From assembly GCA_012719125.1 (NCBI GenBank), contig JAAYAY010000013.1:1-64000 (forward strand): 64,000 nt of DNA, given 5' to 3'. The stretch is from Planctomycetaceae bacterium (GTDB lineage: Bacteria > Planctomycetota > Planctomycetia > Pirellulales > Thermoguttaceae). Position numbers and translations under genes: made by a program. The number at the start of each line of letters is the position of its first letter. Positions within the stretch are counted from its first letter, which is position 1. The notes beneath the pieces were generated by a model, which ran no database searches, had not been told where the DNA came from, and saw only the letters and a program-made list of their open reading frames with translations. Below are positions 20,204 through 63,780 of the stretch, piece after piece.

Positions 20204-21646
20204 CTACGCATCGACTCCCAGGCTGATGTGTTTCGTTTCCAGGTAGGCGTCGATCCCCTCGACGCCGAGTTCGCGTCCCCAGCCGCTCTCTTTCAGACCG
20301 CCGAAGGGGCACTGGCTGGTGGCGGGAACCGTGTCGTTGATCCCGATCGTGCCGGCCTCCAGTCCCTCGGCCAGCCGCCAGGAGCGCGACAGGTCTCGCG
20401 TGAATGCGTAAGCCGCCAGGCCGTATCGGGTGTCGTTGGCCTTGCGGATAACCTCCGCTTCTTCGTCGAAGACACAGACCGGGAGCACGGGCGCGAAGGT
20501 CTCTTCTCGCATGCAAAGGGCCTGGTCGGACATGTCGGCGAGAACGGTCGGTTCGAGGAAGTAGCCGGGGGCGCCCTCCCAACGCTTTCCGCCGCAGAGA
20601 ACCTGAGCACCGCGGCCGGTGGCATCTTCCAGGTGTTTCAGGGCGTTTTCGAGTGAGGGCTCGTCGATGAGAGGACCGATTTCGACGCCTTCTTCCAGGC
20701 CGGGGCCGACTTTCAATTGTCTCGCGGCATCGACCAACGCAGGAATGAACCGGTCGGCAACCGAACGCTGGACATAGACGCGGTTGGCGGCGATGCACGA
20801 CTGGCCCGTATTGCGGAATTTGGCGATGATCGTGCCCTGAACCGCCTTGTCGAGATCGGCGTCGTCGAAGACGATGACGGGCGCGTGGCCGCCCATTTCG
20901 AGGGAGAGCTTCGTCACGTTGTCGGCGGCGCCTCGAATGAGCTGTTTGCCGACGACCGTCGAACCGGTGAAACTGATCTTGCGGCACAGCGGATTGCCGA
21001 GCATTTCGGCGCCGATCTGGCTCGAACTGCCGACGACAAGCTGAAACACGCCGGCCGGAAGCTTTGCTTCGTCGACGGCTTCGGCCAGCATGACGGCGCT
21101 GAGCGGGGTGGCGCTAGCCGGCTTGAGAACGACCGGACAGCCGGCGGCCAGTGCGGGAGCAACCTTGCGGGCGGCGAGGACCAAAGGGAAGTTCCAGGGG
21201 GGAATCGCTCCGACAACGCCGATGGGCGAACGAATGACGAGGTGCCGCTTGCTGCCCGCCTGTTGGGGAACGACGCGGCCGTAGATGCGCTGGGCCTCGC
21301 CGGCAAACCAGCGGAAATGGTCGACCGTCATCGCCACTTCGCCGCGGCTCTGAGGGAGCGGTTTGCCGTTTTCGAGCGTGATCGTGTGAGCAATTTCCTC
21401 GCTTCGGCGCTCGAGGATGTCGGCGATCCCGGCGAGGTAGCGTCCCCGATCGCGACCGGGCGTGTTGCGCCAGGCGGGCCAGGCAGCGGCCGCGTCTTGA
21501 ATTGCCTGAGCGACGGTCTCGCGAGGGACGGTGCCCACATGGGCGAAGACCTCGGTGGTGGCCGGGTTTGTTACCGGGAGCGGGTCCTGGGGCTCCAGCC
21601 ACCGGCCGTTCAGATACAAGCGGCGAATGTCGGTGTTTCCTGACAT
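20204..21646 (-). CDS. NAD(P)-dependent aldehyde dehydrogenase (succinate/malonate-semialdehyde dehydrogenase-like)
   Basis: 'FTGSTVVGKQL', 'LEMGGHAPVIVFDDADLDKA', catalytic 'GQSCIAANRVYV'. Start at 'MSGNTDIRRLYLNGRW' with RBS aggag; the upstream 161 aa of the track ORF are an R-rich artefact. Confidence 0.85.
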   Translation of the reverse strand: MSGNTDIRRLYLNGRWLEPQDPLPVTNPATTEVFAHVGTVPRETVAQAIQDAAAAWPAWRNTPGRDRGRYLAGIADILERRSEEIAHTITLENGKPLPQSRGEVAMTVDHFRWFAGEAQRIYGRVVPQQAGSKRHLVIRSPIGVVGAIPPWNFPLVLAARKVAPALAAGCPVVLKPASATPLSAVMLAEAVDEAKLPAGVFQLVVGSSSQIGAEMLGNPLCRKISFTGSTVVGKQLIRGAADNVTKLSLEMGGHAPVIVFDDADLDKAVQGTIIAKFRNTGQSCIAANRVYVQRSVADRFIPALVDAARQLKVGPGLEEGVEIGPLIDEPSLENALKHLEDATGRGAQVLCGGKRWEGAPGYFLEPTVLADMSDQALCMREETFAPVLPVCVFDEEAEVIRKANDTRYGLAAYAFTRDLSRSWRLAEGLEAGTIGINDTVPATSQCPFGGLKESGWGRELGVEGIDAYLETKHISLGVDA

Positions 21647-21666
21647 GATGGAGGCTCCTTGCTCAA

Positions 21667-22329
21667 CTACTGTTCCGGAGTGGCGTTCCAGGCGTTCTGG
21701 AAGAGCTGTTCTCCCATGGTGGTGTAAGGGTTGCGGAAGCTGTCCTGGTAAACGGCCATACCGGCGGTGATGCAATGGGCGCCGGCCAGAGCGGCTTCGG
21801 CGATGTGGCGGCTGTTGCGGACGGCAGCGGCGATGATCTCGGCGCGATAGTCGTAGTTCTCGAGCATGACGGCCACCTCGGGGATCAGCGACTCGACCGG
21901 GTCGCCGTACTGTTCCTTCCAGCCGACGAACGGACTGACGAAGGCCGCACCGGCTCGGGCCGCCTGCCACGCCTGCGCCACGGAGAAGATCAGGGTCGCA
22001 TTGACCCGTACGCCCCGGTTGGTCAGTTCGCGAATCGCCTTGAAGCCCTGTTCGCTCACGCCGACCTTGATGACGAAGTTGGGCGAGATCTTCGACAGTT
22101 CCAGCCCTTGGTCGACCATTTTCTCCCAATCGGCGAGGTTCGGATCGACTTCGACGCTGACCTCCTTCGTCGTGCCGTCAAACAGTCCGGCGATTTCTTC
22201 GATCACCGTGCGGAAGGGTTTGCCCGAGTCTTTCACATGCTTGGGATTCGTGGTGATGCCGTCGATATCCCACAGATCGAGGGCGTAGCGAATCTCGTCC
22301 GTCTTCGCGCTGTCGAGAAACATCTTCAT
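21667..22329 (-). CDS. Transaldolase-family aldolase (fructose-6-phosphate aldolase / TalC-like, MipB family)
   Basis: 'MKMFLDSAKTDEIRYALDLWDIDGITTNPKHV' ... Schiff-base lysine context 'NFVIKVGVSEQG' ... 'NATLIFSVAQAW'. 220 aa. Confidence 0.85.
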   Translation of the reverse strand: MKMFLDSAKTDEIRYALDLWDIDGITTNPKHVKDSGKPFRTVIEEIAGLFDGTTKEVSVEVDPNLADWEKMVDQGLELSKISPNFVIKVGVSEQGFKAIRELTNRGVRVNATLIFSVAQAWQAARAGAAFVSPFVGWKEQYGDPVESLIPEVAVMLENYDYRAEIIAAAVRNSRHIAEAALAGAHCITAGMAVYQDSFRNPYTTMGEQLFQNAWNATPEQ

Positions 22330-23198
22330 GATTGGATCAGCCTCTGCAAGTATTGGTTGTTTTTCTTCGTATCTTCGATACAGTCTTCGATGCTGTCGTG
22401 GCCCGTCTCGTAGACGTACCAGCCGTCGTAGCCGATTTCGTGGAACGAGCGGAACGCCGCGGGCCAGTCGATCGGCCCCGGCTGTTCGATCAGGTCGTTG
22501 CCGTTCTTGACATGGACCATGGCGATCCGCTTCTTGCCGAGCAGTTCGATGCCGGGAACGGCCTGGTCGCCGTGTCCGTAGAAGTCCATGTTGTGAAGGT
22601 CGTAGTAGACGCCGACGCCCGGATGGTCGACCAGATCGACGAGCTTCTTGTTCTCGGCCGGGCTGAGCGAGTTCTCCAGGCCGATGACGACACCGGCGTC
22701 GGCGGCCTTTGGGGCCACCTTCTTGAGCATGGAGACGATCGGGCCATAGGACGCCTCGTCGGCCATATCGGGAGCGTCGCCGCGGAAGAAGGCAGCGAGG
22801 ATCACGCCGGCGCCGAGCATTTCGGCGGCGCGGATCGAGGCGAGGATGCTCTCGGCGGCGCCGGGGCTGTGGATCGTGACCCCGCGATCCAAGATCCCGG
22901 CCAGGGACGGGACCTTCATGCCGTGGCGTTCGGCCTCCTTCTTGTAGTGGCGAACGGTGTCCCAGTCGCGCAGGTTGGGTGAGCCGGCCGTGGCCTGCAG
23001 TTCGACGCCGCGAAGGCCGGGAATGCTGGCGGCCACCTTAAACACTTCGGGCGTGCCCGCCATCTTCATGCTGGCGGCCCGGATACCGATCTTCAACGGC
23101 TCCGGCTGTGCCGCAGACGCGCTGCGGACGAAACACGCCGAAACGGTTGTGAACGCGGTTGCCTGGAGGAATCTGCGACGCGTTAGCCTGGTTGACAT
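22326..23198 (-). CDS. Sugar phosphate isomerase/epimerase (xylose isomerase-like TIM barrel) with Tat signal peptide
   Basis: Tat 'TRRRFLQATAFTTVSACFVRSASAAQ'; TIM-barrel motifs 'GLRGVELQ', 'HVKNGND'. 4-bp ATGA overlap with the downstream aldolase gene. Confidence 0.8.
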   Translation of the reverse strand: MSTRLTRRRFLQATAFTTVSACFVRSASAAQPEPLKIGIRAASMKMAGTPEVFKVAASIPGLRGVELQATAGSPNLRDWDTVRHYKKEAERHGMKVPSLAGILDRGVTIHSPGAAESILASIRAAEMLGAGVILAAFFRGDAPDMADEASYGPIVSMLKKVAPKAADAGVVIGLENSLSPAENKKLVDLVDHPGVGVYYDLHNMDFYGHGDQAVPGIELLGKKRIAMVHVKNGNDLIEQPGPIDWPAAFRSFHEIGYDGWYVYETGHDSIEDCIEDTKKNNQYLQRLIQS

Positions 23199-53183: not shown

Positions 53184-55700
53184 TCACTCCTTCAGTTCCA
53201 CTACATCTTTCCCCTGGGAACGCACGCCGATGATGCGGCGGCCGTCGACAATCACCTGGTACGTCACGCCGTTTTCGCCCTCGATGATGGCCTGGTCGCC
53301 CTGAAGGGTGACGGGAAACGGTGCTGCCACCCGGTGCGTCTTGTCGGCCGCCACCGAAATCGCGTCGAGTTTGCCCTCCAGCACGAGGCGCAAGCTGACC
53401 AGCGCGCAGGGATTGATCGTCCAGGGACGACGTTCCTGGGTCTCCAGCGCCAACGCGTCCGGAAGAAGGCCCGCGTAGTCGCCGTCGGGATACTGCATCT
53501 GCTCGCCCGCAATCAGAATCCCCCAGGCGAGGTGTTTCCAGTCGAGCGTGTCGTCGTAGGGTGCCAGCTTCGTGAGGGCATAGGCATACACTAGTCCGAC
53601 CCATTGGACCGGGAGTCCGAACCAGACGGGGGCTCGCCAGTTGGTCGCTCCCAGAACGGGAACCGTCCCGTAGACCATGATCGGTTGATTGCCCCACTGG
53701 TAGACGAACGGTACTCCGGAAATCGCCCACCGGCGCGCCTCGTCGAGATAGCTCTTGTCGCCCGTCAGTTCATAGCCTCGCACGTAGGCCCAGACGAGAT
53801 AGGCCGACGCCAGTTGGTCGGGAGTGTGCAAGGGAATCTCCCAAACTTGGGCGCCGCGAGGCGTGCGGAACCGCTTCATGTACTCCAACGTGCGGACACC
53901 AGCCTCCAGGGCGCGGGGGTCCGCCGTAATCCAGGCGTATTCCAGCAGGCCGGCCGCCGGCCTGGCGCAAACGCCGCTTGCCGTGTCTTCGTGGTGGCCC
54001 TGGGCGAACTTGCCCTGATAGCGAAAAGAACCGTCCTCCTGCTGCTGTTTCAGCAATCCGTCGATCTGCGCAAGCTGCTTCTCCTTCCATTCGAAGGCCT
54101 GATTGGTCAGGAAGAAAATCGATTCGTTGGCGATATGGGCGCCGCGCATCGTGAAGTCGCGCCGTCTGGGCACCTGGCCCGTGAGTCGGAAAAGCGTGGA
54201 AACCATGTCGGCGAAGTACTGCCTCGGCCAGCGGTCTTCGACGCAATGGCCCCATCCCTCGGTGGATCGCAGGGGACCATTGAGCGCTTGCAGGCAGAGT
54301 CGGTACTGGGCCTCGGAGCTGCGTGGGGCGTCTGGTAAGGGAGGAAGCCCGCGGCGCTTCACCGCCCAAACGATCTGATCCTCCAGAGAGCCGCCGGCCA
54401 CTCGCAGGACCGCCTTGATCGTGGAACCCTGCAAGGCCATGCGGTGATCGTCGGCCGCGTCGAAGAAATTGGGTGTGGCAAAGATCGGTTGCAGGCCCAT
54501 GTCGTCCCAGGTCAGCGAGACCGACGCTCGGTCGGTGACAAACGACATGAGCGGCATGGTCACGTCGAGCGGCTTGGGGGCGAAGCGGAGGTGGGCTTCT
54601 GTTTCCACGTCGAGCTTGGTGGAACTGTGTTCTCCCTTTCCGAGGTGTTCCAGGCCGGCGAGCAGGCCCTGCTCCAGGCCGCCCAAGACTCGGACCACCG
54701 GGCCTTCACACACGCTCTCGCTCTCGATGACGATATGAATCTCGTTGCCGGCGGTCGAAAGCGTCAACGCAACTCCCTCACCGCGAAACTGAAGGGATTG
54801 AGGCGTGGACGTCAAGTTGAACGACGGGATCCGGTAATCGCAGTGAACCAGCGGCGCCAACAGGGCGACCACCTGGTCGTTCCGAAAAACGCGAGCCGCC
54901 TTGCCGTCCGGAGCGACCTGCAGCTTTCCGCCCTCCAAGGGCATGTCCAGCCACTGGACCGGCGCCTCCGGATGCACGACGAAAAGCGAGCGGCTCACGT
55001 CGGGCAGACCCTCGGCCTGAAGGTCGATCCGAATCGGTTCGATGAGTTGCTTGGCGTCGGTGCCGATCGCGATCACCTTCTCGGTCCCGGGCTGCAGCAA
55101 GAGTACCTGCCCGGCGGCGGTGAACTGTCTCGGTGAGGTCCCATGATTCTTGATCGTGAATTCCGCCCCCGCCTCCGTTAACGCGATACGATCAATCGAC
55201 AACGGGTGCTCGCCCAGGTGGACGAGGCGAATCCAGTCGATCTCGATTTCCCCGGCGCCGTCGGCCGGATCAAGCCGGATGTCGGTCAAATGCCCGGGAG
55301 CGTGGAAGTCGACCTTGTATTCGTGCCACTCATTGTCGGGAATCACTTCGAGGGAACGCGCCTTGTCGTCGCCCCGGCGCGGCGACTCCCGGGTGATCCA
55401 ATAGACCTGGGCAGGCCCTGGAGCCGTGCCGCGGGCGCGGTACTCGAGAGCCATCTGCCCCCCGGAAGTGTCAACGCGGGCGTGCATGTAGGGATCCTTG
55501 CCGGTTGTGTGGACGAGCAGATTGCCGTCGCGGGTCGTCAGCTCGCAACGAGCTTCCGCAAACCAGCCCTTCGTCCCCTCGGAGAAGTCCCACTCCGCCA
55601 CCACTTCGCGGAGTGTTGGACGTGGCATCGGATTGATCTGAGGCAACGGTTCGTCGAACCCCGGCAAGCAGAGCAGACAGATAATGGCGGCGTGGTGCAT
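53184..55700 (-). CDS. Large secreted hypothetical protein (839 aa), possible glycan-active alpha/alpha-toroid-like C-terminal region
   Basis: RBS ggagg before 'MHHAAIICLLCLPGFDEP'; no named motif recognised. C-terminal third is W/Y-rich ('YLVWAYVRGYELTGDKSYLDEARRWAISGVPFVYQWGNQ'). The function is inference only. Confidence 0.55.
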   Translation of the reverse strand: MHHAAIICLLCLPGFDEPLPQINPMPRPTLREVVAEWDFSEGTKGWFAEARCELTTRDGNLLVHTTGKDPYMHARVDTSGGQMALEYRARGTAPGPAQVYWITRESPRRGDDKARSLEVIPDNEWHEYKVDFHAPGHLTDIRLDPADGAGEIEIDWIRLVHLGEHPLSIDRIALTEAGAEFTIKNHGTSPRQFTAAGQVLLLQPGTEKVIAIGTDAKQLIEPIRIDLQAEGLPDVSRSLFVVHPEAPVQWLDMPLEGGKLQVAPDGKAARVFRNDQVVALLAPLVHCDYRIPSFNLTSTPQSLQFRGEGVALTLSTAGNEIHIVIESESVCEGPVVRVLGGLEQGLLAGLEHLGKGEHSSTKLDVETEAHLRFAPKPLDVTMPLMSFVTDRASVSLTWDDMGLQPIFATPNFFDAADDHRMALQGSTIKAVLRVAGGSLEDQIVWAVKRRGLPPLPDAPRSSEAQYRLCLQALNGPLRSTEGWGHCVEDRWPRQYFADMVSTLFRLTGQVPRRRDFTMRGAHIANESIFFLTNQAFEWKEKQLAQIDGLLKQQQEDGSFRYQGKFAQGHHEDTASGVCARPAAGLLEYAWITADPRALEAGVRTLEYMKRFRTPRGAQVWEIPLHTPDQLASAYLVWAYVRGYELTGDKSYLDEARRWAISGVPFVYQWGNQPIMVYGTVPVLGATNWRAPVWFGLPVQWVGLVYAYALTKLAPYDDTLDWKHLAWGILIAGEQMQYPDGDYAGLLPDALALETQERRPWTINPCALVSLRLVLEGKLDAISVAADKTHRVAAPFPVTLQGDQAIIEGENGVTYQVIVDGRRIIGVRSQGKDVVELKE

Positions 55701-56146: not shown

Positions 56147-57469
56147 ATGCCCCGACGCAATCTACGCGTTCTCGTCCTGGCGTTGCTGGTGTGCCTCCTC
56201 TGCGCGCCACGCGTCTCCCGATCCGGTCGCGTCCTCTGGTTTGCCATGCGCCACATCGAGGCCCACTACCTCACCTCCGTCGACGAAGAAAAACTGTTTC
56301 AAGGGGCCATGGACGGGATGACGAAGGCATTGGGCGACCCCTATTCAGCCTATATTCCCCCCGAAGTTCTCCCCGAATTCAATGAGCAAATCGATCGCCA
56401 GTTCGGCGGGCTGGGAATCGAGATCCGGATCGACCACGATACCAAGTACCTTACCGTCGCCAGCCCACTCGTTGGCACGCCGGCAGCCGAGGCCGGTCTG
56501 CTTGCCGGCGATCGAATCCTGCGAATCGATGATGAAAGCACTCAAGGCCTTTCCATCGAGGACGCCGCCAAACTGCTTCGCGGCCTGCCCGGGGAACCGG
56601 TGACGCTGACCATCTCGAGGAAGGGTGCGAAAGAGACTCGCCAGGTTGAGGTCGTTCGTGCCGAGATTCAGGTCGGTACGGTGTTGGGAGACACGCGCGA
56701 TGCGGACGGCTCCTGGAACTACTACCTCGACGGGTATCCCGGAATCGGATACCTGCGACTCGATTCTTTCGGCGAGAACACCGGGGCGCAGATGCGCGAG
56801 GTGATCGCCGATCTGAAGAAACAGGGCCTGAAAGGTCTGATTCTGGACATGCGGGGCAACCCGGGCGGCCTGCTGCCCGCGGCAATCGACGTCTGCGACC
56901 TGTTCGTTTCTCCCGACGATCCCCCCTCGACCGGGCCCGGCGGTGAACACATTTCGTCCGGCCTGATCCTCACGACACGCGATCGCCGGGGACAGGTGAT
57001 CCAGGAATTCTACGCCCATGACGACGGAACCGTGAACGGCTTTCCCATGGCCGTGCTTGTCAACGGGGAGAGTGCCTCGGCCGCCGAGATCGTGGCCGCT
57101 TGCCTTCAGGATCACGGCAAGGCGATCGTCGTGGGGGAACGCTCGTTCGGAAAGGGCACCGTCCAGGAGATTCTCGACTTTCACCCGGACCAGGGGCTCC
57201 TCAAGCTGACCATGGCCAGTTATTGGCGTCCCAGCGGACGGAACATCAACCGCAGCGAAGGCGCGCAGGAATGGGGCGTATCGCCTAATGCCGGTTTTGC
57301 GGTCGCCCTCAACGATGAGGAACGGGTCAATCTTGCCGTCGCGCGGCGGATGCGCGACGTAGCCGAGTCCTACACCGACGAAGAACTGGCCGCAGAAGAA
57401 GTCCCCGAGTTCAACGATCGCCAGCGCAATGCGGCCGTCGAGTGGATCGAGGATCAGATCTCGAACTGA
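56147..57469 (+). CDS. Carboxyl-terminal processing protease (S41 family, CtpA/Prc-like) with PDZ domain
   Basis: Signal 'LVLALLVCLLCAPRVS'; PDZ 'LAGDRILRIDDESTQGLSIEDAAKLLRGLPGEPVTLTI'; S41 'GLILDMRGNPGGLL', catalytic Ser 'VLVNGESASAAEIVAACLQDHGKAIVVGERSFGKGTVQ'. Confidence 0.9.
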   Translation: MPRRNLRVLVLALLVCLLCAPRVSRSGRVLWFAMRHIEAHYLTSVDEEKLFQGAMDGMTKALGDPYSAYIPPEVLPEFNEQIDRQFGGLGIEIRIDHDTKYLTVASPLVGTPAAEAGLLAGDRILRIDDESTQGLSIEDAAKLLRGLPGEPVTLTISRKGAKETRQVEVVRAEIQVGTVLGDTRDADGSWNYYLDGYPGIGYLRLDSFGENTGAQMREVIADLKKQGLKGLILDMRGNPGGLLPAAIDVCDLFVSPDDPPSTGPGGEHISSGLILTTRDRRGQVIQEFYAHDDGTVNGFPMAVLVNGESASAAEIVAACLQDHGKAIVVGERSFGKGTVQEILDFHPDQGLLKLTMASYWRPSGRNINRSEGAQEWGVSPNAGFAVALNDEERVNLAVARRMRDVAESYTDEELAAEEVPEFNDRQRNAAVEWIEDQISN

Positions 57470-60315
57470 ACGCTGCCGACGTTGTCGGCTACGATCGTGG
57501 TGATCCCGGTGATGTAGAACCCGCCTTCCAGGTTACCCGAAGCGTCGTTGCCCACGATCAGGTTGTCGTTGGCCGTGCCGTACTCCGACACGCCAAACTT
57601 CTGCGTCGTCCGGCTGCCGCCCGTCCCGATTGTGTTGTCGGCGACAAGGACAAACGTGCAATTGACCAGCAAGATACCGCTGAAATCCCCCGTTCGACGC
57701 AGGGAATTGTCGACGACGGTGTTCCGGTAAATCGCGTTGTCGCTGCCTCCGTTGACCAGGATGCCTTCCCGGGCATTTCCGCGGATGAGATTGTCGGCCA
57801 CGGTATTGAACATGTCGGCGAAGGAGCCACCCAGACCCAGGCCGCCCACGCCGTACCTCCCGTTGTCTTCCAGCACGTTGCCGGTGACGAGAATGTCGAA
57901 ATTGTCGAAGCAGAAATGGAAGCCGTTGTCGCCGTTGTTACGGCTGACGTTGTTGATCCAGAGCCCGCCGCGATTCAAGTCGCCTCCGGGGTGCAAACCG
58001 TGGCGACGGCTCCCTACGACCAGTGAATTCTCCACGATCACGTCGCTGCTTCCCGCGACTAGAATCCCGTCGCCGGAATCCCCCCGGGTCGCGTAGCCCG
58101 CCTGGCGGATGGTCGCTCCGGAAATCACGGCGTCGGCTTCCACGTTGACGAGGATGCCGTGTCCCCGGACCTTCTCGATGGTAACGTTCTCGATGCGATT
58201 GTCGTGTCCGCCCGTGAGATAGATCCCGCCGCCGTTGGATTCGCGGACGGTCACGTTGCGAACCGCGCCGTCGACCGCCTTTTCCAGATGAATGAGCGCT
58301 GGACTGGCGAGACGCCAGGCCTCGGAGAGTTCGTCCAGGTTCCCGTCGAGAGTCAGGTCCTCCACGACCACGTCCGCCGTCGAGCCGGCTTCGTAGTACC
58401 AGGCGGTGCGGACCAGCGGGAAGTAGTTGACCACGCTGGCCGTGGCGACCGGCGCGTACGTTCCGACAACGGCAATCGGACTGTCAAGATAGAGCTTGCC
58501 GGACTCGATCTTCACGATCGTGTGGCATGCCACAGCACTCTGCCCGTAGGCCAGAATCGCAATGTCGTCGCCGACCGTGAAACCCTTGGTTGATTCCACT
58601 TGCACAAACGTCGCGCCGGTGGCTGCCGTGACCGTGAGCCGCGTCTCGACGTGGTCGGGACGCTCGAGGATCGTCTTCTCCCCTGCTCCGCGCAGGGTCA
58701 CGCCGTCGCGTAGCACAAGCCCCTGCCGCAGGGTAAACGTTCCCTCGGGAAGAACCACCACGCCCCCTTCCTCGGGCAAGGCGTCGATCGCAGCCTGGAA
58801 GCCCCAGGCGGGGTCGCTCGAGTCAAGGAATGCGCTGGCGTAGATCGTCGTTTCCGCTCCCGGACGCTCGACCACAAGCGCGATCCCCGGCTCGGCAACG
58901 TCGACCGTCTGGTCGCCCTCCTCACTCAACCTGGCCGTGACGACGTTAAACCCCTGGGCCCGGCGCACCGTGCCGGACGGATCCTCCGTGAGGGTCACGC
59001 AACGTTCCTCGACCGTAAGGGTGTCGGTGCCGTCCGAATCGTAGACCAGGGCCTCGTCGACCCCCACACTTGCCTTGGCCTGAACGAAGTCAAAGCCTCC
59101 CACTCGGTGCTCGTACCCGGCGCCCCGGAGCCAACTGTGAGTCGAACGGCTTTCGAACGAGTCGGCTCCCGCGGTCCCGCGCAGTTCCGCCTCGTCGTTT
59201 CCGCCCGAGTCGGCATAGGCGTGAACGGAGTCGAACAGCTTGGCGCGGATGAAGTAGTCCTCGCCCAGAAGCTTCCCCCATTCAGAAGTACCGATATAGC
59301 GGTCGTCGCCGGCCGAATCGTGAAGGTTGGCGATATCGTATCCGCCGCCTCGCGCATAGGCGTTGACGACGTCGAATCCATCGGCCCGGTTGATGTACCC
59401 GCTGCCATACAGCGTGGTTTGAGCCGGCGTGCCATGGAGAACGTCGTTACCCGCCGAGTCGACCAGTTCCGCGCAATCGAATCCGCGGCTCGCATAGGCG
59501 GTTACCGAATCGAAACCCACGGCCGCGTTGGAGAAGCCCCGGCCCGACAGGGTCGCACTCTCCGGCGTGGCGCTCAAGTAGTCGTCGCCCGCCGAATCGT
59601 AGATTCTCGCATGGTCGCTGCCGCCGCCCGCATACGCCACCACCTCGCCAAAGAACTTGACTCGGATCGCGTAATTCTCGCCCGACAATCGGCTCCAAGT
59701 TTCCCTTCCCACGAACAGTTCATCGGCATCCGAGCCGGAGATCTCGGCTCGATCGTTACCCCCGGATCGAGCATAGGCGTGCACGTACTCGACCGATTCG
59801 ACGCGAAACGCGAAGCCGTCGCCCGACAGGGTGGAAACGTCCGGGCTGCCGGTGAAAACGTCGTCACCCGCCGAGTCGTTCAGGTACGCTTCGTCAATGC
59901 CGCCGGCATCGGCGACGACCGTCACTTCGCCCGCTCCGGTGGCGACCACCGTCAAACCGTCGGCAACCAGGCGAGTCTCGGCGGGATCGGCGTAGATTGT
60001 GTCGTTGCCGGCCGTATCGTGAAGGACGACGGTGTCGTCTTCTCCGGCGATCAAGGTGATCTCATCAATCGAGTCAACGGCAAACTGCCGGCTGACTCCG
60101 TTCAGCGTGACTCGATATTCGCCGTCGGTGGCGAACTCGAACGCATCCTCCCCGTCCGTGCTGCGGACGGTCAAATGCGTTCCTTCCACGGTGATCTGGT
60201 CGTCGATCGACCACGGCGAAACGGCCAGCAGCAGTCGCGACTCGAGGGGTTCGATCGAGAGCCGCTGGCCGAGGCCCGACCGGCGGGGACGACGGGAATC
60301 CGGGTGCATTCTCAT
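57454..60315 (-). CDS. Secreted repeat protein: planctomycete N-terminal motif, about 7 tandem 37-aa 'DSAGDD' repeats, C-terminal right-handed parallel beta-helix
   Basis: N-terminal 'LSIEPLESRLLLAVSPW'; repeats such as 'AYARSGGNDRAEISGSDADELF', 'AYAGGGSDHARIYDSAGDDYLSATPESATLSGRGF', 'AYASRGFDCAELVDSAGNDVLHGTPAQTTLYGSGY'. Beta-helix 'NVTVRESNGGGIYLTGGHDNRIENVTIEKVRGHGILV...NNGDNGFHF...LIRGNAREGILVNGGSDNAIYRNTV'. Confidence 0.75.
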   Translation of the reverse strand: MRMHPDSRRPRRSGLGQRLSIEPLESRLLLAVSPWSIDDQITVEGTHLTVRSTDGEDAFEFATDGEYRVTLNGVSRQFAVDSIDEITLIAGEDDTVVLHDTAGNDTIYADPAETRLVADGLTVVATGAGEVTVVADAGGIDEAYLNDSAGDDVFTGSPDVSTLSGDGFAFRVESVEYVHAYARSGGNDRAEISGSDADELFVGRETWSRLSGENYAIRVKFFGEVVAYAGGGSDHARIYDSAGDDYLSATPESATLSGRGFSNAAVGFDSVTAYASRGFDCAELVDSAGNDVLHGTPAQTTLYGSGYINRADGFDVVNAYARGGGYDIANLHDSAGDDRYIGTSEWGKLLGEDYFIRAKLFDSVHAYADSGGNDEAELRGTAGADSFESRSTHSWLRGAGYEHRVGGFDFVQAKASVGVDEALVYDSDGTDTLTVEERCVTLTEDPSGTVRRAQGFNVVTARLSEEGDQTVDVAEPGIALVVERPGAETTIYASAFLDSSDPAWGFQAAIDALPEEGGVVVLPEGTFTLRQGLVLRDGVTLRGAGEKTILERPDHVETRLTVTAATGATFVQVESTKGFTVGDDIAILAYGQSAVACHTIVKIESGKLYLDSPIAVVGTYAPVATASVVNYFPLVRTAWYYEAGSTADVVVEDLTLDGNLDELSEAWRLASPALIHLEKAVDGAVRNVTVRESNGGGIYLTGGHDNRIENVTIEKVRGHGILVNVEADAVISGATIRQAGYATRGDSGDGILVAGSSDVIVENSLVVGSRRHGLHPGGDLNRGGLWINNVSRNNGDNGFHFCFDNFDILVTGNVLEDNGRYGVGGLGLGGSFADMFNTVADNLIRGNAREGILVNGGSDNAIYRNTVVDNSLRRTGDFSGILLVNCTFVLVADNTIGTGGSRTTQKFGVSEYGTANDNLIVGNDASGNLEGGFYITGITTIVADNVGSVQFEI

Positions 60316-60824
60316 GGCTGCAATCGCTGAAGTGCCGAAGGGAGGAGCTCTCGCGGGTTCCTTCCCGACTGGCCGCCGCACTCTCCATTCTGATTGGAGC
60401 GCGCAGGAATCTCCAAGGTTTTGTACTGGAGGATGCAAACTCGGGACCGAACAAGAAAGATCCGCCCGTCACCGACTCAGATGCCTAGCCGTTTTGAGGG
60501 GTGAGCAGCCGTGTGCCCGGAAGCAATCGGCACAATCCGCATATTTCGAACCGCAACATCCGAGCAATCGTTCGAATGCCAGCCGTGCGGTCCGTCCCGT
60601 GCCGCGGGCTTTTCGCATACCGGCTCTGCCCGCGAAGCAAGAAGGCAGCGTACTCCGTCCTTGTGTTGCCAAAAGACAACACGCCGCGAAATTCATGCCG
60701 CAGAAGGACTCCCGATTATCCGACCTGCGGCACGGAAACGTTCTATGTTTACTCAGATAGTGGCGTTGTTTCCTCCGCCAGCCAACAAGCAAACACCAAC
60801 CAGTCCCACCACGCGAGGACGGCC

Positions 60825-61385
60825 ATGAAGCCGACAATCATCATCGCAGTATCGCTCATCACCGTGACCGTCATTGCCGTCGGCAGCCTGCAATTCCACC
60901 GAAGCCAGCCGTCCGAAGATCCTGGAATGCCCAAATACGTTCCCTTCTCCGAATCGGCCGCTCCAGTTGCAGACGCGCCGGCACCAGCACCAGCGGACTC
61001 GACTCCAAACCGTCCGACACCTGAAACGCCGGCCGAGACAGACACCAGTCCCATTTCGCCGGCTACCAGCCGGACAGGCCAAAAAGACTGTCTCACGCTC
61101 CTGAGCGTTGCCGAGCGGAGACTGGGGCAATTCGACGACCACGACAAGCGGGCGTGGCGGGTCGAAGTGAAAAACGAGAGCGATCAGAACCGCTATTGCT
61201 ACGTGGAAGTGGAGTGGCTCGATGAAGCCGGATCGCACGTCGACGGCGCCCATACGCTGAGACGGATCGCCCCCGGCACCTGCTCCATTTCCGTGGTCCA
61301 TCCGATGGCCCCGGAAACCGCCGCCAGGGCCAAGTCGATTCGGGTTGTCGAACTTCAAACGCGATCGACGCCCGCGGACGAGTAG
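60825..61385 (+). CDS. Membrane-anchored hypothetical protein (single N-terminal TM, Pro/Ala/Thr-rich linker, small C-terminal domain)
   Basis: 'MKPTIIIAVSLITVTVIAVGSL' TM; linker 'APVADAPAPAPADSTPNRPTPETPAETDTSP'; C-terminal 'WRVEVKNESDQNRYCYVEVEWLDEAGSHVDG'. Confidence 0.5.
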   Translation: MKPTIIIAVSLITVTVIAVGSLQFHRSQPSEDPGMPKYVPFSESAAPVADAPAPAPADSTPNRPTPETPAETDTSPISPATSRTGQKDCLTLLSVAERRLGQFDDHDKRAWRVEVKNESDQNRYCYVEVEWLDEAGSHVDGAHTLRRIAPGTCSISVVHPMAPETAARAKSIRVVELQTRSTPADE

Positions 61386-61762
61386 AACAAGACGGCGGTT
61401 CATGCCCTGTCCTCCTGCGACTGCTCTCCGAACACCTTGCGGTCTTCACAGCGGCCCTCTCGTCGGCGTTTGTATTCTCACGCCGCGCGGAGTTTCAGAC
61501 CGACATTAGCCTCCCGGAACCGCGCGACCGCACCCGAGATTTGTCGGATGACTGTTCGGGTAGCGGACAAACCTGATCGCCGCGCTGCAAGAGTCGCCCT
61601 CGCCATCGTCCGCAGGCGGTTGGCAGCCTGATGCGATTGAGAAACTCGCATCTCGGGGAGAAGGCTAGTGCAGTGGAAGGGGTCGCTTGCTCTCCGCAGG
61701 TCGTTTGGTATCGTAAGACCTTGTACAGTAACACGTTATAGTGTCTTGCGCCGTCCTTTTGC

Positions 61763-61791
61763 TTGACAGATTTCCTGTATTATTGTATTTT
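61763..61791 (+). promoter_or_regulatory. Sigma-70-like promoter (TTGACA-17 nt-TATTTT) for the islet's first gene
   Basis: 'ttgaca gatttcctgtattattg tatttt' in an AT-rich stretch, followed by RBS 'aggaaa' and ATG 61805. Confidence 0.45.
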
Positions 61792-61804
61792 CCAAAATAG
61801 GAAA

Positions 61805-62914
61805 ATGAGTAATTTCAGGAAAACACCTACCGAATCGGACATCCTTGAGCGACTTCGCCGTGGCGAAGTCGCCCTGCCACCGTTGCGTCTGGAAATCGTC
61901 GAAACAGGAAAATGGTCCGACCGGGGATCGGCCGTGTGGGACGCTGTTGTTGTTGCGTCGTACAACGACCAACAGGCTGAATTCGTCGTCGAGTGCAAAG
62001 CCCTGTCGACTCCAAAGGGATTTGACGACGCCGTTCGGCAGTTTCAAGGCCAGCCATTGCCGTCTGACGCCCTGCCGATGGTGATCATGCCCTATCTGCG
62101 TGAATCTCAACTCCGAGAGCTGGAGGCACTGGGGATCAGCGGCGTGGATCTGTGTGGTAACGGCATCGTCGTGGCCCCGGGGCGTTTCACCGTGTCTCGG
62201 ACTGGTGAAAAGAACCAGTTTTCGACGTATTCGCCGATTAAGAATATCTACCGCAAGAACTCCTCGATGGTCGGCCGAGTGTTTCTTGCAACGCCTTTCT
62301 TTGAGAGCGTTCAGCAGATCCGTGAGTCGATCAACGCCAGAAACCTGCTTCTGTCGCGTTGGAGGAAGACACCAATGGGGCTGAGCACCGTCTCAAAGGT
62401 GCTCAAGGTGCTTGAGGAGGATCTCATTGTCGAACGAAGCCAACGAATTCGGCTCCTCCAGCCGGATAAGCTGTTGGAATCCTTGAAAGACAATTTTGTT
62501 CAGCCAAGCGACCCGCCTCGGATTCGGCTAAAACTCGAAGGTGATAGGGCAACCTTGTTGCGGCTGCTGACGGAGCAAGCCAACGCGGCCTCGGTTCCCA
62601 TGGTAGCGACTGGCTTGTCGTCCGTTTCGCGGTATGCCGTCATGCAGCGAGAAGACATACTGTCGGTCTACTGCCCACGAATTGCAGCCTTGCGAGAACG
62701 CCTGGACGGCAAGGCGACCGACCGATTCCACAATGTCGAGTTGATCGAGACCGACGAGCAGCCCCTGTATTTCGACACGCGGGAAGCGGACGGGTTTCAT
62801 TGGGCGTCACCAGTGCAAACGTTCCTTGAACTCACGGCGGGCGACAAACGCGACAAGGAAACCGCTGAACAGGTGAAAGCCCATCTTCTCCGCAGCTTGG
62901 GAGTCACGGATTGA
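61805..62914 (+). CDS. Hypothetical protein with N-terminal PD-(D/E)xK nuclease-like motif and central wHTH-like segment; upstream partner of the AbiEii-like gene
   Basis: 'GSAVWDAVVVASYNDQQAEFVVECKAL' shows D...E-x-K spacing typical of the PD-(D/E)xK fold. 'LSTVSKVLKVLEEDLIVER' is wHTH-like. 4-bp ATGA overlap with the next gene. Lower GC than the rest of the window. Confidence 0.55.
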   Translation: MSNFRKTPTESDILERLRRGEVALPPLRLEIVETGKWSDRGSAVWDAVVVASYNDQQAEFVVECKALSTPKGFDDAVRQFQGQPLPSDALPMVIMPYLRESQLRELEALGISGVDLCGNGIVVAPGRFTVSRTGEKNQFSTYSPIKNIYRKNSSMVGRVFLATPFFESVQQIRESINARNLLLSRWRKTPMGLSTVSKVLKVLEEDLIVERSQRIRLLQPDKLLESLKDNFVQPSDPPRIRLKLEGDRATLLRLLTEQANAASVPMVATGLSSVSRYAVMQREDILSVYCPRIAALRERLDGKATDRFHNVELIETDEQPLYFDTREADGFHWASPVQTFLELTAGDKRDKETAEQVKAHLLRSLGVTD

Positions 62915-63780
62915 TGAACCTCATGCCGACGCTTCAGAGGGCGCTGACCGACGTCCTCTACGAGACAAAGGACGAGGCACTGCGACTGATCGTTGGCGGC
63001 GGTTACGGCATCTACCTCAAACGAGAATACGTCCGAGACAATGGGATTCGGACACTACTGCGTGAGTGGCCGGAAGCCCAATCCACGAACGATCTCGATC
63101 TCTTCTTGCCGCCGGAGTTGCTCGTCGATTCAGCACGATTGAAGCCGCTTGGGTCGGCGCTCCAGCGTCTCGGTTACAAAGTCATCCGTGGAGCGGAGAA
63201 ATTCCAGTTTGCCAAACTGGGACCGGACGGGGGACAGGCGGGTAGCCTCAAAATCGACCTATTGACAGGCCCCAGAAGCAGTTTCGCAGGGACTTCCGCC
63301 CGAGTCGACGAAAGGCGAGTTCGGCCACGTCCGTCAGTCGATGTCCATGCACACCCGGTCGATGAAGCATTGACACTCGAAGAAGGACTGTTGCCCCTGA
63401 CGCTCCATGGCGTCACGAGCGGCGGCATCGCCCATGATGCGACGGTGTACGTCCCGCATCCGCTGACATTCACCATGATGAAGCTGTTCGCATTTCGCGA
63501 CCGGCTGAACGACGAAAGCAAGGATTTCGCTCGCTATCATGCGCTGGACATCTATACGGTGCTGGCCACCACCACAGAGAAGGAGTGGGATGAGGCATTG
63601 GAGCTGAGTGAGACCTACCATGCGGCACCCGTCGTCATCGAAGCTGCCCAAGTCGTGAAAGACCATTTCGCCGGCCAGGACAGCCTGGGAATGCTGCGGC
63701 TCCGAGAGAGTCCATACGCCAGGCCGGAACTGCAACTGGGAGAATTCCTCGATGCGTTGCAAGAGCTTCTTCTGTCGTAG
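62911..63780 (+). CDS. Nucleotidyltransferase-fold protein, AbiEii/AbiGii toxin-like
   Basis: 'IVGGGYGIYLK...(about 25 aa)...NDLDLFL' fits the NTase 'hGG...DhDh' motif of the AbiEii family. 'KLFAFRDRLNDESKDFARYHALDIYTV' matches the AbiEii C-terminal 'K..R...aRDlYDl' motif. Confidence 0.6.
   Translation: MMNLMPTLQRALTDVLYETKDEALRLIVGGGYGIYLKREYVRDNGIRTLLREWPEAQSTNDLDLFLPPELLVDSARLKPLGSALQRLGYKVIRGAEKFQFAKLGPDGGQAGSLKIDLLTGPRSSFAGTSARVDERRVRPRPSVDVHAHPVDEALTLEEGLLPLTLHGVTSGGIAHDATVYVPHPLTFTMMKLFAFRDRLNDESKDFARYHALDIYTVLATTTEKEWDEALELSETYHAAPVVIEAAQVVKDHFAGQDSLGMLRLRESPYARPELQLGEFLDALQELLLS

Follow-up and report, generated by a model that had tools for sequence, protein, structure and literature searches.

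In a 64,000-nucleotide stretch of a Planctomycetaceae bacterium genome (contig JAAYAY010000013.1, assembly GCA_012719125.1; hereafter the window), the minus-strand gene at 57454–60315 encodes a 953-residue protein in which an array of eight tandem 46–48-residue repeats precedes a predicted right-handed parallel beta-helix (Table 1). The repeats belong to a large planctomycete family that is used modularly and has no model in the libraries searched. We interpret the gene product as a secreted two-module protein, in which a portable, Ca2+-stabilized repeat rod serving as a spacer or attachment device would carry a beta-helix acting on polysaccharides. We put the probability of this interpretation at roughly 55%.

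The repeats are delimited by regularly spaced anchor motifs. AYA recurs every 46–47 residues (aa 180, 227, 273, 319 and 366), and the Asp/Gly-rich core appears as DSAGDD at aa 147, 240 and 333 and as DSAGND at aa 286. These recurrences confirm the consecutive Asp/Gly-rich repeats described in an earlier inspection of the DNA letters and translations (the sequence-only reading). The period of 37 residues and the count of about seven copies proposed there need revision. Copies are 46–48 residues long with a mode of 47 (the consensus string accompanying the shorter period itself has 46 characters), and alignment gives eight copies over aa 85–459, flanked by an N-cap and a half-repeat C-cap. Across the family, 47 is likewise the modal spacing (63 of 116 spacings), and 82 of the 116 fall between 45 and 48. 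All eight window copies score 30–61 bits each with the family profile, which together with the caps places the array in the family; the same profile finds no further copy elsewhere in the window.

The repeats are far beyond chance. A word-indexed search with the repeat region returned 82 homologues, and a hidden Markov model (HMM) built from the eight window repeats detects 1–11 copies in each of 82 independent homologues at 27–300 bits, while the best of 200 shuffles of the repeat region reaches 9.4 bits with the same HMM. Tandem Repeats Finder detects no tandem repeat at the DNA level, so that the repeats are visible at the protein level only and the copies are old and diverged, with 23–50% identity to the reference copy. 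The family consensus is h-A-Y-A-t-a-G-G-x-D-x-A-x-L-y-D-S-a-G-d-D-x-F-v-a-x-P-x-x-a-x-L-x-G-x-G-[YF]-x-n-R-A-k-g-F-[DE]-x-V. Conservation is at least 94% at G8 (97%), D10 (98%), A12, D21 (94%) and F44, and the positions that hardly vary are Gly and Asp in two turns of six to seven residues.

The size of the family became apparent with a profile of 96 repeats (A2) searched against 1.84 billion cluster representatives. Matches were found in 3,199 clusters at E ≤ 1e-3, 2,501 at ≤ 1e-10 and 1,423 at ≤ 1e-30, in proteins with up to 33 matched stretches and lengths of up to 7,237 residues. The repeat is thus not novel in the sense of rare, as the sequence-only reading had implied: the family comprises at least 3,199 clusters and usually sits at the C-terminus of other enzymes. 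Of the 147 top-ranking representatives, 133 carry the array at the C-terminus, seven at the N-terminus (the architecture to which the window protein belongs) and four internally, and in three it makes up the whole protein. The passenger domains are mutually unrelated and include subtilisin, C25 and matrixin peptidases, SASA esterase, CAP, alkaline phosphatase, cyclophilin, Ig/cadherin-like, PKD and beta-helix domains; giant adhesin-like proteins also carry arrays. Every named source belongs to the Planctomycetota (Thermoguttaceae, Pirellulales, Planctomycetaceae, Novipirellula aureliae and Rubripirellula tenax).

The arrays have defined ends. A leader with the consensus GTxGxD...V..NG is conserved ahead of the arrays in homologues, and C-terminal arrays close with a conserved cap, ...D-F-x-L-x-L-x-G-x-W-[QE], ending 25–35 residues past their last detected unit. 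Because the window protein keeps an equivalent of this cap (ending IALVVERPG) just before its beta-helix, the cassette is a complete portable domain.

Existing models and literature do not cover the repeat, and the sequence-only reading was right that it matches neither RTX nonapeptides nor a known domain. Neither Pfam nor NCBIfam gives a match on aa 35–500, even at E ≤ 10 on that region alone, and Pfam gives nothing on the repeat regions of eight other family members. The RTX model (HemolysinCabind, PF00353) does not match either, whether the whole protein is searched at E ≤ 1 or the repeat region at E ≤ 10. Among PDB sequences, no meaningful match was found to the whole protein, the repeat profile or the cassette profile. 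The repeat profile produced a lone match to an RTX block (E 9.1), and a match to a flavodoxin (E 0.01) was rejected as spurious. Further, no published description of the repeat was found in the full-text literature.

A highly regular all-beta fold is predicted for the cassette. The AlphaFold2 (AF2) model of aa 33–500, built from a 57-row alignment, has a predicted local distance difference test score (pLDDT) of 88.7, about 98 over the repeats, and a predicted template modelling score (pTM) of 0.85. For the single low-pLDDT stretch, at aa 262–304, a genuine disordered insert was considered and rejected, because the alignment does not cover the stretch at all and its sequence is that of a canonical repeat. 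By DSSP, each unit consists of strand b1 (five residues), a seven-residue loop (A-x-x-G-G-x-D), b2 (five), a six-residue loop (D-S-A-G-D-D), b3 (four), a turn of three, b4 (six), a turn of two, b5 (six) and a final turn of three, i.e. five strands per repeat. Structural comparison against the PDB returned no close fold match. Foldseek ranks the RTX region of CyaA first (E 5.6e-5), with a TM score of only 0.20–0.29; the other neighbours, also weak, include the RTX rolls of LipA and alkaline protease, the Ca2+-dependent antifreeze beta-helix 3p4g and the S-layer protein RsaA. Most of the better-ranked of these weak neighbours are Ca2+-binding RTX rolls or Ca2+-dependent beta-helices. The Ca2+-dependent beta-helical repeats of MpAFP/MpIBP region IV (3p4g) and RsaA are among the known systems closest to the cassette, and the repeats are best classed among the Gly/Asp-rich extracellular beta-solenoid repeats.

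The calcium question is framed by the comparison with RTX proteins. Both long turns of the unit end in G-x-D-x-hydrophobic (G8-x-D10-x-A12 and G19-x-D21-x-F23), which is the core of the RTX turn motif, GGxGxDxUx (cf. PMC6891781). The window array has an isoelectric point (pI) of 4.16 and a net charge of −52, or about −5 per repeat, and the 204 family arrays have a median pI of 4.21 and −3.8 charges per repeat. Like RTX regions (PF00353; CyaA, alkaline protease, LipA), the arrays are tandem, Gly/Asp-rich, secreted, strongly acidic and variable in copy number, place x-hydrophobic-x strands after G-x-D turns, are usually C-terminal with a capping tail, and find in RTX rolls their best, though weak, structural matches. 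They differ in a unit of 47 residues with five strands rather than nine residues and in having only two RTX-like turns per unit, which lack the leading GG. The tandem nonapeptides characteristic of RTX proteins are absent. The window protein, in addition, has an N-terminal export motif in place of a type I secretion system (T1SS) context and carries its array at the N-terminus. Because the turn core, the acidity and the identity of the best structural neighbours point in the same direction when taken together, Ca2+-stabilization of the rod is plausible and the most economical reading.

The second module is a right-handed beta-helix of a polysaccharide-active type. The pectate-lyase-like beta-helix named in the sequence-only reading was recovered both by family models above their thresholds and by structure prediction. 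Matches of Pfam and NCBIfam beta-helix models span aa ~506–930, with Beta_helix (PF13229) at E 9.8e-20 (71.2 bits, cutoff 25.9), NosD (PF05048) at E 1.7e-14 (54.2 bits, cutoff 23.6), the repeat model TIGR03804 at 31 bits (cutoff 19.45) and Pect-lyase_RHGA_epim at its threshold (E 2.1e-6, 28.1 bits, cutoff 27). The AF2 model (pLDDT 93.6, pTM 0.93) has 187 PDB matches at E ≤ 1e-3, and among the matches listed all are beta-helix proteins, mostly enzymes. The best is a Klebsiella phage depolymerase (9k4a, E 6.9e-15), and others include the K1 capsule lyase 7w1c, Pseudomonas phage tailspikes (4ru4), the A-modules of AlgE6 and AlgE4 (5lw3 and 2pyg; TMt 0.63–0.65, 19% identity), AlgG, and GH28, GH87 and GH110 enzymes. 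Phage capsule depolymerases, tailspikes and polysaccharide lyases thus provide the best Foldseek matches (E 7e-15 to 1e-12). They differ from the window protein in that identity is only 11–14%, in that the window protein lacks trimerization and virion-attachment domains, and in that its gene is chromosomal, in a syntenic bacterial context. The region aa 481–953 has 40 homologues, mostly stand-alone proteins of ~440 residues annotated as right-handed parallel beta-helix repeat proteins, and family-invariant positions (domain numbering) include H294-P295, D176-G177 and D268-G269, with the motif G-x-H-P-G. On these models, the beta-helix is likely to be a catalytic module acting on polysaccharides.

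One relative of the beta-helix, P0240 (41% identical; locus L011, 5001–6740), lies in a phage-like contig alongside genes for RtcB, thymidylate synthase, a radical SAM protein, a sigma-70 region 4 protein and a T7 Gp5.9-like product, which suggests that phages and planctomycetes have exchanged the domain. Neither module found a match by tblastn among 50,697 phage records.

The gene itself is real, since an identical 953-residue product is predicted by gene callers in at least 22 metagenome contigs from several samples and a Thermoguttaceae metagenome-assembled genome carries a full-length orthologue (57% identity), which marks the organism as a Thermoguttaceae-like planctomycete. The product starts at an in-frame ATG at 60315 within a longer minus-strand open reading frame (ORF, 57454–60438). 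The planctomycete N-terminal export motif proposed in the sequence-only reading recurs in homologues but falls short of its family model. The L-E-x-R-x-L-L motif (LESRLLLA in the window) recurs at the N-termini of four homologues (P0001, P0011, P0027 and P0069), and two homologues (P0013 and P0053) carry a precomputed PF07595 annotation, while the score of Planc_extracel (PF07595) on aa 18–34 is below the Pfam threshold (E 0.039; 14.1 bits, cutoff 25.5). The motif is referred to in PMC8567305 as a cell-surface signal peptide of planctomycetes. Two long-read assemblies have the orthologous gene in split or truncated form (L004, 7060–9776; L005, 990–4017), with an ORF of 262 or 239 residues directly upstream of a product of 591 or 742 residues, respectively, that lacks the N-terminus; these are probably frameshift errors and not real gene fissions.

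Taken together, the two modules suggest the following arrangement. Residues 35–486 would form a self-contained, non-catalytic all-beta cassette of N-cap, eight repeats and C-cap, in which two long Gly/Asp turns (x-x-G-G-x-D and D-S-x-G-x-D) and three tight ones link the five short strands of each repeat, and successive copies are predicted to stack into a solenoid-like rod. Outside the cytoplasm, Ca2+ would neutralize and rigidify this rod, as it does RTX rolls, and the beta-helix at aa 487–953, of the kind found in capsule depolymerases, polysaccharide lyases and alginate epimerases, would be the catalytic part. Because the cassette is fused to many unrelated secreted enzymes and to giant proteins, its job is likely generic and not partner-specific; the fusion pattern and variable copy number are consistent with a rigid spacer or an attachment device by which the fused domain would be displayed or held at the cell surface or within the matrix. 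Several observations weigh against this arrangement. The period is 47 residues, the G-x-D turns lie 11 residues apart (9 in RTX) and the RTX Pfam model does not match; the AlgG and NosD family models of NCBIfam score far below their cutoffs on the beta-helix (AlgG, 9.3 vs 700 bits); the evidence for a scaffold or anchor role consists of the domain-fusion pattern and analogy; and proteins made of the array only exist, so that the cassette may have a function of its own.

The strongest competing explanation is that the cassette is a cell-surface retention domain that binds a polymer of the cell's own envelope or matrix through multivalent avidity, with Ca2+ incidental or absent. By analogy, choline-binding, CWB2 and SLH modules are similar in being terminal tandem repeats of variable number on unrelated secreted enzymes of one lineage, and no sequence or fold relation between them and the window repeats was found. 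The terminal position of the array on many unrelated secreted enzymes, a copy number of 3–33, the lineage-restricted distribution, the autonomous caps and the occurrence of array-only proteins would all fit such a role. The most conserved residues, however, are turn Gly and Asp and buried Ala and Phe, which point to a structural or metal-binding role more than to a ligand site, and the explanation overlaps with the spacer or attachment reading, from which it differs mainly in emphasis. We regard retention by polymer binding as possible but not probable.

AlgE enzymes, which carry a YG(F/I)DPH(D/E) motif, combine a beta-helix A-module with Ca2+-binding RTX-like R-modules. These mannuronan C-5 epimerases are the nearest architectural analogue of the window protein, as both join a polysaccharide-active beta-helix (here predicted) to an acidic Gly/Asp repeat module, and they suggest that the array could be a substrate-targeting module that binds the polymer and tunes the enzyme, as R-modules do for the A-module. 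The structural resemblance of the beta-helix to the AlgE4 and AlgE6 A-modules, the RTX-type rolls among the best structural neighbours of the array and a conserved 838-residue neighbour with a weak glycoside-hydrolase-like signal favour this explanation. Nevertheless, AlgE enzymes have their modules in the opposite order, their repeats differ from those of the window protein in sequence as well as period, the nearest relatives consist of the array only, and in most family members the partner is a protease, a phosphatase, cyclophilin, CAP or an Ig-like domain rather than a carbohydrate-active enzyme. A substrate-targeting role is considered unlikely.

A further explanation involves the gene next door. 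The sequence-only reading had noted a 16-bp overlap with a convergent CtpA protease gene and had suggested that the protease may process the array protein. The overlap is present (57454–57469), and the neighbour is an S41 peptidase with a PDZ domain (PF03572, 151.6 bits, E 1.9e-44; PDZ_6, 51.4 bits) that passes the general C-terminal processing peptidase model TIGR00225 (prc; 265.6 vs a cutoff of 218.6). Assignment to CtpA itself failed, with 221.4 against a cutoff of 625 for the CtpA-specific model NF045588, and the CtpB, CtpC and CtpZ models were also below their cutoffs. Convergent adjacency of array gene and S41 gene is found in seven loci, namely the window, L004, L005, L006, L014, L016 and L017; in close orthologues, however, it forms part of a broad synteny. 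More telling are the array's nearest relatives (P0004, P0011 and P0012; 38–40% identity), which are array-only proteins of 447–523 residues at the same genomic position, convergent to an S41 gene (52–55% identity) that is followed by a gene for an 840–844-residue protein (56–57% identity), and the outer flanks differ. Because these positional orthologues are array-only, either an array-only gene gained the beta-helix in the lineage of the window or its relatives lost it. The array-only relatives in L014 (7001–8344), L016 (7001–8572) and L017 (7001–8422) end in a conserved tail of their own, ...AFEAVFVMNDNGGFDPIY....

The third member of the block, the 838-residue protein, has no Pfam or NCBIfam family and only a weak GH127-like match (E 0.007). 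Its counterparts follow the S41 gene in L004, L014, L016 and L017 at 56–79% identity, so that the triad of array gene, S41 gene and 838–844-residue gene is conserved in five loci with differing outer flanks. Scanning metagenomes with the S41 protein yielded just two fragments of poor quality. Maturation, release or degradation of the window protein or its array-only orthologues by the S41 peptidase would be in line with the seven convergent loci, which persist at S41 identities down to 52–55% and with differing outer flanks and give some indication that the genes are linked, and with the export signals on both products. Convergent genes are, however, not co-transcribed and form no operon. In addition, the overlap of 16–19 bp is limited to the contigs of the window and L004, with gaps of 33–149 bp elsewhere; at the extreme C-terminus, the beta-helix orthologues differ from one another (FEI, EDD, APD, DDS, KAD, VRA), unlike a conserved recognition tail; the 838-residue gene is conserved to the same degree, which may reflect plain retained synteny; and other family members, with C-terminal arrays, lack an S41 neighbour. 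Processing by the S41 peptidase is improbable, and a functional link of any kind between the two proteins is doubtful.

A more far-reaching version of the preferred reading would make the cassette the hallmark of a planctomycete-wide display system, in which a Ca2+-dependent beta-solenoid of new geometry tethers thousands of different secreted enzymes and giant adhesins to the cell envelope and the conserved array-only gene beside the S41 peptidase belongs to the assembly or release machinery; we consider this a long shot. Least likely is an RTX-equivalent secretion domain with type I-like export and Ca2+-driven folding as a ratchet, for, despite the acidity, the RTX-like turns and an array that lies at the C-terminus of 133 of the 147 representatives and ends in a conserved tail of ~25–35 residues, that tail looks like a structural cap, the window array is N-terminal with 467 residues after it, members carry an N-terminal export motif, and no ABC transporter, membrane-fusion or TolC genes occur in six contexts (the window gene ±10 kb and five other members).

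Other genes near the array were also noted. In L001, ~8 kb beyond the S41 gene, a large secretin gene (20714–22862; 1,226 residues, Secretin_N and Secretin domains) might provide secreted proteins encoded nearby with a route across the outer membrane. Upstream of the array gene, gene callers predict a 216-residue minus-strand ORF (60753–61403) that is Arg/Gly-rich and has a non-coding look; the plus-strand ORF at 60810–61385 (MKPTIIIAVSLITV...), whose product has a transmembrane helix, a Pro/Thr-rich linker and a C-terminal domain, is the better candidate for the real gene. Further on, two plus-strand genes that overlap by 4 bp (61763–62914 and 62911–63780; 383 and 289 residues) lie in a patch of lower GC content (0.55–0.59 vs 0.62–0.64). 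They show only sub-threshold similarity to HTH_Crp_2 (E 0.0027) and NTP_transf_8 (E 0.0012) and nothing in PADLOC or NCBIfam; judged by these signals, the pair may be an uncatalogued helix-turn-helix and nucleotidyltransferase toxin–antitoxin or defence-like module.

Table 1. Features of the array gene and its conserved neighbours, in window positions (aa, residues of the 953-residue protein)
Feature	Position	Strand	Basis
Whole coding sequence, 953-aa secreted two-module protein	57454..60315 (including stop codon)	−	ORF list
Planctomycete export-type N-terminal motif, aa 18–34, RLSIEPLESRLLLAVSP	60214..60264	−	Pfam Planc_extracel PF07595, sub-threshold
N-cap, small all-beta leader, aa 35–84	60064..60213	−	AF2 pLDDT 86–98, five short strands
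Eight tandem 46–48-aa repeats, aa 85–459	58939..60063	−	Repeat alignment, profile scores, strand pattern
Repeat R1	59923..60063	−	
Repeat R2	59782..59922	−	
Repeat R3	59641..59781	−	
Repeat R4	59503..59640	−	
Repeat R5	59365..59502	−	
Repeat R6	59224..59364	−	
Repeat R7	59083..59223	−	
Repeat R8	58939..59082	−	
C-cap, half repeat ending IALVVERPG, aa 460–486	58858..58938	−	DSSP b1-loop-b2-loop-b3 pattern; comparison with 163 C-terminal tails
Right-handed parallel beta-helix, polysaccharide-active type (predicted), aa 487–953	57457..58857	−	Pfam, AF2, Foldseek
Exported S41 C-terminal processing peptidase with PDZ, 440 aa	56147..57469	+	Pfam, TIGR00225
838-aa protein without family, third triad member, divergent from S41 gene	53184..55700	−	Conserved counterparts

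Planctomycetes secrete very large numbers of poorly annotated proteins, and little is understood of how their unusual envelope holds or releases them. At least 3,199 clusters without a Pfam or NCBIfam model or a close solved structure represent a sizeable annotation gap, and defining the repeat family would supply labels for thousands of regions now called hypothetical, including the tails of proteins of up to ~7,000 residues. For the window gene, the analysis offers a concrete reading as a polysaccharide-acting beta-helix presented on a repeat rod. If the rod is Ca2+-dependent, it would extend the few calcium-switched beta-solenoids known (RTX rolls, antifreeze and ice-binding proteins) by a new repeat geometry; such solenoids are of interest for secretion mechanisms and protein engineering. 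If the display-system reading were true, the cassette would play in planctomycetes the role that RTX repeats with the T1SS, the C-terminal domains of the type IX secretion system (T9SS) or SLH repeats play elsewhere.

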